A stretch of DNA of 64,000 nt from Escherichia coli (GCF_046105845.1 NZ_CP151004.1); one strand, 5' to 3'; shown: positions 3,261 through 47,070, counted from the stretch's first letter. Notes: generated from the letters alone by a model not told the origin. Numbers and translations are program-made.

Positions 3261-4394
3261 TCAAAACGAAGCTAATTGACCCTGAATCCAGATTTGTTGC
3301 ACATGCAGCCCGCTATCCAGCGCAACGACGCTGGCGCGTTTGCCCGGTTTAAGCGATCCCAGAACATCATCAACACCCAGCATACGCGCCGGATGCAGCG
3401 ACGCCATATGGATGGCTTCCGCAGGCGTTACGTCCGTCAACTCGACCATGTTGCGCACTGCCGCATCGACAGACAGCGTACTGCCCGCCAGCCCACCGGA
3501 CGCGGTACGGACAACGCCACCGTGCATCTGCACTTCTTCACCACATAACGTATAGCGACCATCCGGCATCCCTGCTGCCTGCATCGCGTCGGTGATGAGC
3601 ACGATTCTCTCTTTCGCACAGCAACAACACAGCGACATCGCCGCCGGATGCACATGATTACCATCGGCTATCAGTTCCAGCCAGGCGCGCTTGTCCGTTA
3701 ATCCCGCGCCAACCATTCCCGGTTCGCGGTGATGTAAACCTGTCATCCCGTTATAGCAATGCACCAAGCCGTCGGCACCAGCGTCAAACGCGGCACGGGT
3801 TTGTTGCCAGGTCGCCGCGCTATGCCCCAGCATCACCCGTACGTTTTGCTGTTTAAGATGGCGGATGGCCTGCAATGCCCCTTCTTTTTCCGGTGCCAGC
3901 GCTACCACGCGCAAGGTGTGCTGAGAAACGGCAATCAACTGATCCAGCTCGGCAATTTCCAGCTCGCGAAACAGCTCCGGCGGATGCGCGCCTTTATTCT
4001 GCGGCGTGAAGTATGGTCCTTCGAGATAACTCCCCAGCACTTGCGCACCAGGTCCGCCGCGTTGGCAACGTTGAGCAATACGTTTCAGCGCCGCATGAAT
4101 GGTATTAAGCGGAGCGGTTACGGTGGTCGGTAACCAACTGCCGACACCTTCGCGTGCTTTGTGCATTGCCAGCTTGTCGAGCACATCCGGCGCGTCATCC
4201 ATTACATCAACGCCCGCACCACCGTGTACATGGGTGTCGATGTAAGCGGGGCAGAGCAGTTCCGCATCGCGTTCAGTCACGCCCACTGGAATCGGTTCGA
4301 TTGCTGCGATGACACCGTCAGCAATACGCAACTGATGGTCATCGAGCCATCCCTCTTCAGTCAGCAGCCTTCTGGCGCGCAGAACGTGTGTCAT
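3261..4394 (-). CDS. agaA: N-acetylgalactosamine-6-phosphate deacetylase, full length
   Basis: ORF track 3261..4415; preferred start is ATG at 4394 (MTHVLRARRL...) which overlaps the agaF stop as ATGA; amidohydrolase HxH motif (DTHVHGG). Confidence 0.88.
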   Translation of the reverse strand: MTHVLRARRLLTEEGWLDDHQLRIADGVIAAIEPIPVGVTERDAELLCPAYIDTHVHGGAGVDVMDDAPDVLDKLAMHKAREGVGSWLPTTVTAPLNTIHAALKRIAQRCQRGGPGAQVLGSYLEGPYFTPQNKGAHPPELFRELEIAELDQLIAVSQHTLRVVALAPEKEGALQAIRHLKQQNVRVMLGHSAATWQQTRAAFDAGADGLVHCYNGMTGLHHREPGMVGAGLTDKRAWLELIADGNHVHPAAMSLCCCCAKERIVLITDAMQAAGMPDGRYTLCGEEVQMHGGVVRTASGGLAGSTLSVDAAVRNMVELTDVTPAEAIHMASLHPARMLGVDDVLGSLKPGKRASVVALDSGLHVQQIWIQGQLASF

Positions 4395-4825
4395 ATTCCT
4401 TCCTCGACCGGACATTCTTCATGGCAGCGGCCTAACTCGTCCACCAAACTGGTCAGCCCACGGTGTCCACACTCCAGCGCCTGCACACGGAACTCTTCAC
4501 CGCTTAACCCTTCGCGCTCCAGCACCATCTCCAGTAGCAGTTGCAAATTGGTGCCGGTGATCACTTCACAGCCCGGTTTTTGTATCGCCAGCGTTGAAGC
4601 TACGCGAAACGGCGTGCCGCCCAGCAAATCCGTCAGAAAAACAATGCCGTCTTCACAATCCAGTTGGGCGAAGGCCTCTTCAAGCTGCGATGTAAGCAGC
4701 GCGGTGCTTGAGGTTTCCGGAAAATCGATGGCGATAAACTGCGATTGCTCGCCGAGGATTTGCTTCATTGCTTTTTCCATGCCGCTGGCAAATCCGCCAT
4801 GCCCTGTCAAAATAATACTTAACAT
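4391..4825 (-). CDS. agaF: PTS galactosamine-specific IIA component
   Basis: 144-aa ORF; small PTS IIA of mannose family; gene is absent from K-12 (from memory), so its presence marks a non-K-12 aga locus. Confidence 0.85.
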   Translation of the reverse strand: MLSIILTGHGGFASGMEKAMKQILGEQSQFIAIDFPETSSTALLTSQLEEAFAQLDCEDGIVFLTDLLGGTPFRVASTLAIQKPGCEVITGTNLQLLLEMVLEREGLSGEEFRVQALECGHRGLTSLVDELGRCHEECPVEEGI

Positions 4826-4842
4826 CTAATACCTCATTGTAT

Positions 4843-5727
4843 TTAAAGGAAATGACAGAATTTACCGACGATGCCGAGAACCACGGTCACTGCAATCAGG
4901 CGCAGCGGACTCCAGCCGCGGCGTACCAGCCAGAACATGGTCAGGGTGTAGACCAGCGGTAAGAAGGCAGGCATCAGTTTGTCGATAACATCAGCCTGTA
5001 ACTTAACCACTGCGTCGCCCGCTGTGATTTCCAGCGTGGTGCTTAAACGAACATAGGTTGCCACCAGCGCGCCGATTACCGTCATCCCAACGATAGACGC
5101 AGCATGGCCGACTTTTTTGGTATTCGCTTTAATGAGTGGAATCGCCGCCACGCCCATGCGGTAAGCATAATGCGCCAGACCAAAACGCAGCCCCAGGTGT
5201 ACCACGTTGAACAGCACAATAAAGACGACTGCGCCAAGAATGGAGCCTTGCAATGCCAGACTGGCTCCAATCCCGCCACAAATCGGCAGTAGCGTTAGCC
5301 AGAACATTGCATCGCCAATCCCGCCAAGCGGCGCACCGACGGCAATTTTGGTGCTCTGAATACTGTTAACGTCCTGCTTAGAACGCTCCATCGCAAGGAT
5401 AATGCCGATAACAAACGTCACCAGAAACGGATGGGTATTGAAGAAACCCATATGCCCCTTCATGGCGCGCGCCAGGTCGCGTTTATTAGTGTGGATCTTT
5501 TTCAGAGCAGGCAGCAGACCGTACAACCAGCCAGAAGCCTGCATACGTTCGTAGTTAAAAGACGCTTGTAACAGCATGGAACGCCAGGCGACGCGGTTGA
5601 TATCTTTTTTCGTCAGCTCCGCGCCAATGCTCTGATCTTCATACACGTTTTCATTGACGCCAGTCAGCAATGTTTCTTCGTTTTCACTGACGTTCGGCAG
5701 GGTGGTTTGATTAGATGCCATCTTCAA
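4843..5727 (-). CDS. agaE: PTS galactosamine-specific IID component
   Basis: 294-aa hydrophobic ORF; IID-like; synteny. Confidence 0.85.
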   Translation of the reverse strand: MKMASNQTTLPNVSENEETLLTGVNENVYEDQSIGAELTKKDINRVAWRSMLLQASFNYERMQASGWLYGLLPALKKIHTNKRDLARAMKGHMGFFNTHPFLVTFVIGIILAMERSKQDVNSIQSTKIAVGAPLGGIGDAMFWLTLLPICGGIGASLALQGSILGAVVFIVLFNVVHLGLRFGLAHYAYRMGVAAIPLIKANTKKVGHAASIVGMTVIGALVATYVRLSTTLEITAGDAVVKLQADVIDKLMPAFLPLVYTLTMFWLVRRGWSPLRLIAVTVVLGIVGKFCHFL

Positions 5728-6490
5728 ATTCCTCTTTCTGTGCCGCAGGTTGAGTCGGTTCAGGAGATTTACGCAGCAGATCGATCAGCGCCATCGCCAG
5801 CGCGGCGGCAGCAATAGCCAGCACCGGTAACTTGAGCCAGGCGGCGGCAACAAAGCCCAGGATGAAGTAGGGGATGTAGACGTTTTTCATCATGATTTTC
5901 AGCAGCACGGCAAAACCGATTGCTGGCATGATGCCGCCCGCGACGCCGAGGCCGTCGATTAATCGTTGCGGCAGGACATCAATGATGGTTTTGGCATGTT
6001 CTGCGCCGAAGTAGATAGGCAGGAAAGCGCAGAGAAAATAGAAAGTGCCGAGTGCCAGCAATGCCAGATAGTTCACGCGTTCAATGCCGCGTGTATCGGC
6101 GTTCTCCGCCATCCGGTCGCAGCGAGACATCACGCCAGACATCACCGAGAACAGGAAGGTAATCCCCATCTGTACTGCAACAGCGAAAGGTACGGCGACA
6201 CCGACCGCGACATCGGGTTTCACGCCAGTAGTAATGGCAAACGCCGTGCCGACGATAGTACCGATAATCACGTTAGGCGGTTGTGCGCCTGCCAGCGGGG
6301 CCAGCCCCATCCACACCAGTTCCAGCGTACCGCCGGTTAAAATACCGGTATGCAGATCGCCAAGTACCAGCCCGACCAACGGGCCGAGGACCACCGGGCG
6401 GTGCATATGGGTTAGGCCGTTAAACATATCCAGGCCAGCGATAAAGGCGATAATGCCCAACGCGAATGCCTGCAACAGACTGATTTCCAT
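5711..6490 (-). CDS. agaW: PTS GalNAc/GalN IIC component
   Basis: 259-aa hydrophobic ORF; full length here. Confidence 0.85.
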   Translation of the reverse strand: MEISLLQAFALGIIAFIAGLDMFNGLTHMHRPVVLGPLVGLVLGDLHTGILTGGTLELVWMGLAPLAGAQPPNVIIGTIVGTAFAITTGVKPDVAVGVAVPFAVAVQMGITFLFSVMSGVMSRCDRMAENADTRGIERVNYLALLALGTFYFLCAFLPIYFGAEHAKTIIDVLPQRLIDGLGVAGGIMPAIGFAVLLKIMMKNVYIPYFILGFVAAAWLKLPVLAIAAAALAMALIDLLRKSPEPTQPAAQKEEFEDGI

Positions 6491-8525: not shown

Positions 8526-9335
8526 ATGAGTAATACCGACGCTTCAGGTGAGAAGCGAATGACAGGCACCAGCGAGCGACGAGAACAGATCATTCAGCGT
8601 CTGCGACAGCAAGGGAGTGTGCAGGTTAACGATCTGTCGGCATTGTATGGCGTATCTACTGTGACGATCCGCAACGATCTGGCGTTTCTGGAAAAGCAGG
8701 GGATCGCTGTGCGTGCCTATGGCGGCGCGTTGATCTGCGATAGCACGACGCCGTCAGTCGAGCCATCAGTGGAAGATAAAAGCGCGCTGAACACCGCAAT
8801 GAAACGCAGCGTTGCGAAAGCTGCCGTTGAGTTGATTCAGCCAGGTCATCGGGTGATTCTCGATTCCGGGACCACCACTTTTGAGATTGCTCGTCTGATG
8901 CGCAAGCACACTGACGTAATTGCGATGACCAACGGTATGAACGTGGCTAATGCGTTGCTGGAAGCTGAAGGCGTTGAGCTGCTGATGACCGGGGGGCATT
9001 TGCGCCGTCAGTCGCAATCTTTTTACGGCGATCAGGCTGAGCAATCGCTGCAAAATTACCACTTCGATATGCTGTTTCTTGGTGTAGATGCGATCGATCT
9101 GGAGCGCGGCGTCAGTACGCATAATGAAGATGAAGCCCGTTTAAACCGCCGGATGTGCGAAGTTGCGGAACGGATCATCGTGGTCACCGATTCCAGTAAA
9201 TTCAATCGTTCCAGTTTACATAAGATCATTGATACTCAACGTATCGACATGATCATTGTTGATGAAGGCATTCCTGCGGATAGCCTGGAAGGGCTGCGAA
9301 AGGCTGGGGTTGAAGTGATTCTGGTCGGGGAGTGA
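8526..9335 (+). CDS. agaR: DeoR-family transcriptional repressor of the aga regulon
   Basis: 269-aa ORF with N-terminal HTH and DeoR C-terminal domain. Confidence 0.9.
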
Positions 9336-9389
9336 GAAAGTGTGCCCGCTGGTCAACACGAATGCGTTCGGCGGGCATTGTGAACACCA

Positions 9390-9854
9390 TCAATGGGGTT
9401 CTTCTGTCTCTCGGGTGAGGGTTTCCCAGTCGGCAGGAGGATGTCCTCTTTTTAACATTTTGCTGAATACGGTATAGGCATCTGTTTTTTTACCGTAGGT
9501 GCGCAGAGTGTTTTCATCGTTCATCCATCCCAGAATGATGACTTTCTCTTTTTCACTATAACGAAAGAAGAGACGATAACGACCAGCACCAAATTTTACC
9601 CGTGACCAGTCTTTATTTTTCCCAGAGCCTAACGACTTGCCATGACGGAATGCCGGTGATGATGGATTGACCGTGATATGCTCCTCAATCACTTTATGGA
9701 CTACCGCCAATAACTTTGTGGCGGCTTTTCTCTGATAATTTTCAGGATCTTTTCCCTTTAATGTCTCGACTTCGGCAACTAAAGCGTCGTAGGTTTCCTG
9801 AAAACAGGGATGAGCATATAGCGCCCAACCATTAACCCTTTGTGGAAAATCCAT
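9390..9854 (-). CDS. yhaV: type II toxin (ribonuclease) YhaV
   Basis: 154-aa ORF immediately downstream of and overlapping prlF. Confidence 0.88.
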   Translation of the reverse strand: MDFPQRVNGWALYAHPCFQETYDALVAEVETLKGKDPENYQRKAATKLLAVVHKVIEEHITVNPSSPAFRHGKSLGSGKNKDWSRVKFGAGRYRLFFRYSEKEKVIILGWMNDENTLRTYGKKTDAYTVFSKMLKRGHPPADWETLTRETEEPH

Positions 9855-10189
9855 TATTCGTCGTCGCCAATCTCATCATCAATGTTGACGTCCATGCCAG
9901 CGACAAGTTTCTTTCCTTGTTGAATGTTGAATGGACGAGTTTTTTGCGGGTTGTTCTGGATATCTGCATCCAGAAAACGCAAAAATGCATTCATAGTATG
10001 ATCCTCCTGTTCATCTCCCAGTCGGCACATAAATACTTGCCCACCAGGCAGAATTTCGTAATGAATGCTGTCCTGGCCTGGCTTCAGTTTTAAGGCCTCA
10101 CGCACTGGCGCGGGGATAGTTGTTTGTCCGCGTATCGTGACCTTTGATTCAGTGGTCAGTACAGCGTGAGAGCGAGCATTAGCGGGCAT
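9854..10189 (-). CDS. prlF: type II antitoxin PrlF (SohA), AbrB/SpoVT-type DNA-binding
   Basis: 111-aa ORF with acidic C-terminus; 1-nt overlap with yhaV. Confidence 0.88.
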   Translation of the reverse strand: MPANARSHAVLTTESKVTIRGQTTIPAPVREALKLKPGQDSIHYEILPGGQVFMCRLGDEQEDHTMNAFLRFLDADIQNNPQKTRPFNIQQGKKLVAGMDVNIDDEIGDDE

Positions 10190-10287
10190 GATTCACTGTC
10201 CTTTTACAGCCTGTTTTCTGCTCAAATTATAAGCTTGAACTAAGGTAATGCAAATGCATTATTAATGTACGTGGGGGCTTTAAACAA

Positions 10288-10316
10288 TAAAAACATGGCA
10301 CTAAGGCCATGTTTTG
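10288..10316 (-). terminator. rho-independent terminator after garD
   Basis: CATGGC-ACTAA-GCCATG hairpin ~20 nt past the garD stop, with a T-run on the minus strand. Confidence 0.7.
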
Positions 10317-46779: not shown

Positions 46780-47070
46780 TTTTCGATCCTTTCATTGTGT
46801 TGTCGCACATCCCTGGTGCGTTCTGTCGACGCATCTTTCAGGATGTAACAAAGTGTTTGCAAGGTCGAGTATAAGGAAAGTTACAGCTTCGGGAAGCGAA
46901 AAATGCTGGATTTTAAAGAGCGGTCATATTTTGCAACTTAATTGTTACATTTATTTGACATAAACAGAGGGAAGGACTGGCTACTAAGGCTGATTAGATA
47001 ACATATGGGCAAAACTATTTGGAATATGAGAACGGTTGCGCTCCTTTAATGTGCTATGCCATATAAAGTC

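Follow-up and report, generated by a model that had tools for sequence, protein, structure and literature searches.

Escherichia coli K-12 carries the toxin gene yhaV and the antitoxin gene prlF between garD and agaR, and the same gene pair appears in a 64,000-nucleotide stretch of E. coli DNA (GCF_046105845.1, NZ_CP151004.1), the whole of which we refer to here as the window. A sequence-only reading of the window described the pair as an intact type II toxin-antitoxin (TA) module, composed of an AbrB-like antitoxin and an RNase toxin, and considered it noteworthy as the one TA pair retained in a window that has lost higBA. The question that this locus raises is whether the module is in fact undamaged and, if so, whether its presence here is anything other than the usual condition of E. 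coli.

The two open reading frames have exactly the positions, the lengths, and the 1-nt overlap that had been given for them (Table 1). Their junction reads GAC GAC GAA TAA / ATG GAT TTT, in which the A at position 9854 serves both the prlF stop codon and the yhaV start codon. The placement of the module between the aga and gar loci is also correct, since agaR and garD flank it as they do in K-12. PrlF matches PF15937 PrlF_antitoxin with an E value of 6e-42 (142.2 bits; cut-off, 32) and NCBIfam NF007429, the PrlF equivalog, with an E value of 1.4e-50 (170 bits; cut-off, 125). YhaV matches PF11663 Toxin_YhaV with an E value of 8e-54 (181.9 bits; cut-off, 35) over 137 of the 138 profile positions, while a search of the NCBIfam models gave no match for YhaV. 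Scores this far above the cut-offs cannot be put down to chance, and the earlier assignment of the locus as a prlF-yhaV type II TA pair with a predicted RNase toxin is fully borne out.

Table 1. Coordinates, strand, and basis of assignment of features in and next to the prlF-yhaV module of the window
Feature	Position	Strand	Basis or remark
garD, neighboring gene	10338..11909	-	
Terminator-like hairpin of garD, AAAACATGGC-cttagt-GCCATGTTTT, then a T-rich tail; upstream limit of the module	10290..10315	-	Identical in K-12
Perfect palindrome TAATGCA-tt-TGCATTA, likely PrlF or PrlF-YhaV operator, overlapping the -35 hexamer	10246..10261		Sequence; core kept in Salmonella and Yersinia
Candidate sigma-70 promoter: -35 TTTGCA (10254..10249), 17-nt spacer, -10 TATAAT (10231..10226)	10226..10254	-	Consensus match, 10/12
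Shine-Dalgarno AAGGA, 9 nt upstream of the prlF ATG	10199..10203	-	Direct sequence reading
prlF (sohA), antitoxin and autorepressor gene, 111 aa plus stop	9854..10189	-	ORF call; family HMMs; 100% identity to K-12 PrlF
Tandem repeat (ATTCAAC)x2 in prlF, nt 258-271, slippage/frameshift hotspot	9919..9932	-	Wild-type two-copy state, 111-aa product
TAATG stop/start junction, 1-nt overlap	9852..9856	-	Direct sequence reading; same abutting antitoxin-toxin order in Salmonella, Paracoccus, and Yersinia copies
yhaV, toxin gene, 154 aa plus stop	9390..9854	-	ORF call; family HMM; 153/154 versus K-12 (T153P)
Weak hairpin, GC-rich, between the stops of the convergent genes yhaV and agaR	9344..9376	-	-20.6 kcal/mol, z = -1.63, not significant
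agaR, neighboring gene	8526..9335	+	

Alignment with the K-12 proteins shows that PrlF is identical at 111 of 111 residues, which makes it the Swiss-Prot PRLF_ECOLI sequence as well, and that YhaV differs at a single residue (99.4% identity). There is no frameshift and no indel. Both frames are open, the 7-nt hotspot in prlF has the two copies of the wild type, and the module is intact, as had been stated. Aligned with K-12 MG1655, the 1002 bp between the garD and agaR stops differ by 5 SNPs and 0 indels. Two of the SNPs are in the 3' spacer, and one (10268, C to A) is 7 nt upstream of the palindrome; the 10268 A allele is common to strain NRZ14408. The exact YhaV sequence with P153 occurs on at least 1000 contigs under the YhaV name, and P153 is also present in strain 7/2. 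Thus, compared with K-12 PrlF-YhaV (b3129-b3130), which has the same genes, garD/agaR site, lengths, TAATG overlap, promoter, palindrome, and ribosome-binding site, the window differs by these 5 SNPs and by T153P, which is a common allele. We conclude that the locus is very probably the chromosomal prlF-yhaV type II TA operon and an intact ortholog of b3129-b3130, and no feature of the sequence speaks against this. Because the module is complete and essentially identical to that of K-12, it is an ordinary and already explained feature.

For the toxin, we compared YhaV with a family alignment of 54 sequences, down to 49% identity, from Salmonella, Citrobacter, Yersinia, Erwinia, Kosakonia, Paracoccus, Neokomagataea, and Chthoniobacterales. 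YhaV of the window keeps all 26 invariant and 29 near-invariant positions of this alignment. The invariant positions include W10, R85, K87, R92, R98, R118, and Y120, and R94 is near-invariant. Conserved arginines are reported to be needed for YhaV activity (PMC5408214), and W10 is the site of a mutation that was selected during evolution in chemostats (PMC5960147). Since the family varies in both sequence and length after L146 and the Pfam domain (residues 12-150) ends at residue 150, T153P is in an unconstrained tail. Many of the database entries named YhaV are 200 aa long (e.g., P0031, P0032, and P0034) and have N-terminally extended gene calls, and two others (P0036 and P0059) have both PrlF and YhaV domains, apparently by a frameshift at the junction or a fusion. 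Both kinds of entry look like annotation artefacts.

A search of all PDB chains with YhaV, either as a single sequence or as a family profile, detected no solved structure. A ThreeFoil match (E = 0.002) in the PDB search with PrlF and YhaV was rejected as a short repeat match to a designed protein. The AlphaFold2 model of YhaV, which was built from the family alignment, has a pLDDT of 89.7 and a pTM of 0.86, and when it was compared with the PDB by Foldseek, the top ~44 matches were all toxins of the RelE/ParE superfamily, with target-normalized TM-scores of up to 0.79. These matches include PfiT, the RelE proteins of E. coli and M. tuberculosis (among them ribosome-bound structures), HigB, HigB2, YoeB, and ParE. 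Because all of the top matches are RelE/ParE toxins, the model bears out the claim of a RelE fold, and YhaV is predicted to be a protein of the RelE/ParE-type alpha/beta fold. The modeled fold matches these toxins exclusively, although RelE, HigB, YoeB, and PfiT are roughly 85 to 110 aa, compared with 154 aa for YhaV, which has no sequence-level similarity to any solved structure. The partner proteins are also different: the antitoxin of RelBE is of the RelB type, whereas that of YhaV belongs to the PrlF family (AbrB/MazE-like). In published cleavage profiles, YhaV falls into one clade with RelE and HigB, its cuts being preferentially followed by G and biased with respect to codon position (PMC8546651). 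We note that PDB entry 2KHE, which is called a YhaV monomer in a figure legend of PMC7781912, is Thermus thermophilus RelE in the PDB library.

The membership of PrlF in the PrlF family stands, but the matches that bear on its description as AbrB-like, although concordant, are all below curated cut-offs. PrlF scores 19.5 bits against PF04014 MazE_antitoxin (cut-off, 24.7) and 27.1 bits against the TIGR01439 AbrB domain (cut-off, 28.3). A PrlF family profile searched against the PDB matched the AbrB-family chains 5itm, 5itj, and 2l66 at E values of 0.04 to 0.05 and SpoVT at 0.35 to 0.97. The MazE, AbrB, and SpoVT matches agree on PrlF residues 14-58, each of them weakly and below threshold. The top two matches of this profile search were designed repeat proteins, which we regard as spurious, and no true relative of PrlF came up when all PDB chains were searched with the single sequence. 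The AlphaFold model of the PrlF monomer is poor (pLDDT, 61.4; pTM, 0.27), and a Foldseek search with it returned noise. The swapped-hairpin AbrB fold forms as an interlocked dimer. The AbrB-like label, which the sub-threshold matches support, has its basis mainly in the literature (PMC7781912). MazE-type systems pair with a MazF-like toxin, whereas PrlF is paired with YhaV, which is predicted to be RelE-like.

The promoter hexamers, the palindrome, the ribosome-binding site, and the TAATG junction are all identical to those of K-12. The core of the palindrome is also present upstream of prlF in the copies from Salmonella (GGTAATGCAttTGCATTACC) and Yersinia (TGGTAATGCAATTGCATTACCA), at a distance from the start codon that is similar to that in the window and within flanking DNA that is unrelated. 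The PrlF-YhaV complex binds a palindrome in the prlF promoter (PMC7781912), and the palindrome in the window is likely the PrlF-YhaV operator, in agreement with this published binding. At the other end of the module, the hairpin between the yhaV and agaR stops was considered as a yhaV terminator and rejected. It is not distinguishable from shuffled sequence, so we claim no terminator downstream of yhaV, and a simple terminator scan did not call it.

Because the proteins and the control region are essentially those of K-12, the mechanism described for K-12 can be carried over to the window. A single promoter is predicted to drive both prlF and yhaV, and the TAATG overlap would couple the translation of yhaV to that of prlF. 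For toxicity, neutralization, DNA binding, ribosome dependence, and the connection with Lon, we draw by analogy on the literature on K-12. K-12 YhaV arrests growth and PrlF neutralizes it (PMC7781912, PMC8546651), and the two proteins are reported to form a PrlF2-YhaV4 complex that binds the palindrome cooperatively and represses the operon (PMC7781912). PrlF of the window would likewise be expected to bind and neutralize YhaV, and PrlF2-YhaV4 would be expected to bind the palindrome over the -35 hexamer and repress its own operon. If PrlF ran short, free YhaV would act as a RelE-fold endoribonuclease that cuts mRNAs on translating ribosomes, with growth arrest as the outcome. Ribosome dependence is supported by transcriptome-wide cleavage data, in which YhaV, as do RelE and HigB, has a sub-codon bias, a 5'-end bias, and G after the cut (PMC8546651, PMC11980606). 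Ribosome-dependent cleavage by YhaV is also attributed to Choi et al. (2017) where that study is cited in PMC7781912 and PMC11980606. Earlier in vitro work had reported ribosome-independent cleavage (PMC5408214), but later work favors ribosome dependence. The level of PrlF and its C terminus may also influence the activity of the Lon protease, as has been described in the literature.

With respect to higBA, the sequence-only reading was right about the absence, but the loss that it proposed does not follow. A tblastn search with K-12 HigA and HigB gave no match in the window, and in the alignment, the 924-bp insert of K-12 that contains higA and higB (3233713-3234636) has no counterpart. The fadH-rlmG spacer of the window (52203-52319) is 117 bp and contains two REP elements (short repeated palindromic) and no insert. 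The flanks of this site are 95.0 to 96.3% identical to those of K-12, compared with ~97.5% for the rest of the window. HigBA of K-12, which lies about 43 kb from prlF-yhaV in that genome, is likewise a type II module of the chromosome whose toxin belongs to the RelE superfamily, but it has the toxin gene first, which is opposite to the order in prlF-yhaV, and it is absent from the window. K-12 higBA DNA has matches in 4377 of the 5426 complete E. coli genomes, and only 2825 of these genomes match it at ≥80% coverage; about a fifth of E. coli genomes are without higBA. Contiguous empty fadH-rlmG junctions are found in other strains, including NRZ14408, which is the closest relative of the window. 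Strains of group B2 have been reported to retain an orphan higA (PMC7232551).

We then compared outgroups at this junction. A coding pattern from the C-terminal end of fadH, applied to one genome per species, gave 59 loci, which were searched with K-12 FadH, RlmG, HigA, and HigB. In 42 of the 46 non-Escherichia loci that contain both gene ends, the fadH and rlmG stops are -4 to 175 bp apart and there is no relative of HigA or HigB between them. Among the 59 loci, higBA is at fadH-rlmG only in some Escherichia lineages (sp. E1V33 and E. whittamii, with higA alone in MOD1-EC7003) and in Pseudocitrobacter. Two species representatives labeled E. coli have the same empty spacer of 116 to 117 bp as the window. 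Since 42 of the 46 outgroup loci are empty and the paired-REP spacer is present in the window and the outgroups alike, we conclude that the empty site is ancestral at the scale of the family. In K-12, the 9 nt that open the first REP (GCCGGATGC) are followed by the insert, at the end of which they are repeated. This direct repeat was considered as a deletion scar, but it fits insertion and precise excision equally, so we claim no direction for the change. For the lineage of the window, a site that never received higBA and one from which it was precisely excised would be alike in sequence. It is therefore correct to say that the window lacks higBA, which is the better wording, while "lost" is unproven.

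The window is collinear with K-12 3225000-3284886, except for three extra segments. For the collinear part, the K-12 and RefSeq annotations list no other toxin or antitoxin. A search of the window against Rfam at gathering thresholds found only RNase P, which leaves the module and its vicinity free of any known type I antitoxin sRNA and of other Rfam elements. Each of the extra segments was considered and rejected as a TA candidate. The segment at 3819-6115 is agaA/F/E/W, which is missing from K-12 (the names agaA, agaF, agaE, and agaW were assigned by position), that at 46964-47402 contains only low-complexity ORFs, and that at 54497-56431 has one ORF, of 513 aa, for which Pfam gave no significant match (the best, at E = 0.18, is below the cut-off). 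The statement that the window contains one TA pair thus holds for the known families covered by the annotations, by Rfam, and by the screen of the extra segments. Its noteworthiness is another matter. At ≥80% coverage, the prlF-yhaV locus is present in 5132 of 5426 complete E. coli genomes (~95%), always named prlF/yhaV and always between garD and agaR, and because of this prevalence, its retention here is not noteworthy.

Several observations were made on the rest of the window. The N-acetylgalactosamine cluster (3261-6490) looks complete, with full-length ORFs of 384, 144, 294, and 259 aa that fill the 2.3 kb missing in K-12. The segment between sstT and alx is a 438-bp stretch of G+C-rich, repeat-like DNA, where K-12 has ~220 bp; its ORFs are rich in Arg, Ala, and Pro, and in NRZ14408 a hypothetical protein of 100 aa is annotated by RefSeq at the corresponding position. 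The third segment is a 1.9-kb insert between fadH and ygjK. Neither K-12 nor NRZ14408, the nearest genome, has it, and of the 5426 complete genomes only 251 match it at ≥80% coverage. Its ORF (54643..56184, minus strand) is a "hypothetical protein" with three internal repeats (INLINxxTD...VNELVxAMTNAL motifs). The region upstream of alx presumably contains the known Mn-responsive leader element, and Rfam detected no family there (48361-48660). The K-12 leader (L001 13282-13580), which is ~96% identical, was likewise negative, so the missing match reflects a limit of detection rather than anything peculiar to the window. Over 25 kb (6201-31200), the best match among the 5426 complete genomes was at most 99.1% identical, with NRZ14408, MS 69-1, GN02461, and similar strains as the nearest; because none exceeds this value, the source lineage is only sparsely covered by finished genomes.

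In other strains, the ATTCAAC repeat of prlF varies. A homologue search found many PrlF entries of odd length in E. coli and Shigella (118, 125, 130, 137, 144, 151, 119, and 126 aa), all of which diverge at residues 87-93, the site of this repeat. When we simulated 1 to 17 copies of ATTCAAC, these natural variants were reproduced exactly, by 5, 8, 7, 10, 13, 16, 9, and 12 copies, respectively. Alternative copy numbers, both simulated and natural, result in a frameshifted or extended PrlF. Among complete genomes, the annotation of E. coli FORC_042, which has 6 copies, lists prlF as a frameshifted pseudogene (L071 421-462), while E. coli MS 21-1 has 11 copies in frame and a PrlF of 132 aa (L072 339-415). 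The prlF repeat is thus a natural variable-number repeat, whose copy number in E. coli and Shigella ranges from 2 up to at least 16, and many of the variants are from Shigella sonnei. We searched the literature for reports of such natural variation of the prlF repeat and found none. The two-copy form is present in at least 4927 of 5426 complete E. coli genomes. A frameshift, which had been named beforehand as the finding that would speak against an intact module, does occur naturally at this repeat, and the window is free of it.

The effect of a single additional unit is known from laboratory work. In a large study of laboratory evolution, no prlF mutation other than the +7-nt allele was recovered, and this allele raised prlF-yhaV expression, lowered ompF, and conferred resistance to carbenicillin, aztreonam, and D-valine together with sensitivity to peroxide (PMC7686311). 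It is also the classic Lon-hyperactivating allele prlF1 and was quickly fixed as a compensatory change (PMC12107188). One could imagine that the repeat is a contingency locus, in which slippage between 2 and at least 16 copies toggles PrlF among wild-type, in-frame extended, and frameshifted forms and so switches autorepression, the activity of Lon, and heteroresistance to beta-lactams on and off in natural populations of E. coli and Shigella. We think this unlikely, but if it were true, the window would represent the ground state of a switch, which is more than an intact gene.

More distant prlF-yhaV pairs occur in other genera. The pair of Salmonella enterica (L065/L066) adjoins Phage_pRha and ANT antirepressor genes, that of Yersinia mollaretii (L069/L070) is between a holin-lysozyme-spanin cassette and KilA-N/ParB genes, and that of Paracoccus (L067/L068) is near hipA and, in one genome, also near an IS transposase. 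Judged by these gene neighborhoods, the more distant pairs appear to be mobile cargo. The Salmonella and Yersinia prophage pairs share with the E. coli module the protein families, the gene order, the abutting or overlapping genes, and the operator core TAATGCA-NN-TGCATTA. They differ from it in toxin sequence (63 to 67% identity) and in having a prophage-like setting rather than the fixed site of E. coli.

The physiological role of chromosomal TA pairs is generally disputed, and a reading of prlF-yhaV other than that of a classic addiction module has to be weighed. The pair could be mainly a regulator of stress and physiology, in which the dosage and C-terminal state of PrlF tune Lon, porins, and antibiotic susceptibility and the 7-nt repeat is a reversible mutational switch. 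The recurrence of the +7-nt allele in laboratory evolution with the effects on expression, ompF, and resistance given above, its hyperactivation of Lon and fast fixation, and the existence of natural alleles with 5 to 16 copies would all fit such a role, as would the selection of yhaV loss-of-function mutations in chemostats (PMC5960147) and the regulation by CpxR that has been reported for prlF. However, a regulatory role is compatible with the TA mechanism and in fact builds on it, and the natural expansions may be slippage noise or assembly variation. Moreover, the window and at least 4927 of the 5426 complete genomes are at the two-copy ground state, which means that switching is rare. We therefore regard a mainly regulatory role as rather unlikely.

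The phage-like neighborhoods of the Salmonella and Yersinia relatives, the Paracoccus copy near an IS transposase and hipA, and the G+C content of the module (44 to 47%, compared with 50 to 56% for the flanks) could instead suggest that prlF-yhaV is chiefly a relic of a mobile element, or an anti-phage (abortive-infection or exclusion) device, that has become fixed in the E. coli chromosome. The E. coli copy, however, is a bare islet of 1 kb, near which there is neither an integrase nor an att-like repeat nor a phage gene, and it is at the same site in ~95% of E. coli genomes, which makes this explanation improbable. It is more improbable still that the pair is intact and yet functionally silent in this strain through changes in its promoter or operator or through T153P. 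The only changes that could be invoked for silencing are the SNP at 10268, near the operator, and T153P itself. Both alleles are found in other strains, residue 153 is in the unconserved tail of YhaV, and every control element from the promoter hexamers to the junction is that of K-12. The reading that we prefer is that of the K-12-type TA operon in its wild-type state.

Taken together, prlF-yhaV in the window is an already known, near-universal, and undamaged E. coli module, with nothing surprising or novel about it. To carry this textbook TA pair on the chromosome in undamaged form is the normal condition of E. coli, and the value of the result is that of a clean annotation. The sole lead of some interest is the natural variation in copy number of the 7-nt repeat in prlF, which lies outside the two-copy state of the window itself. 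Because a single extra copy alters antibiotic susceptibility and Lon activity in laboratory evolution, this natural variation is worth a specialist's glance.
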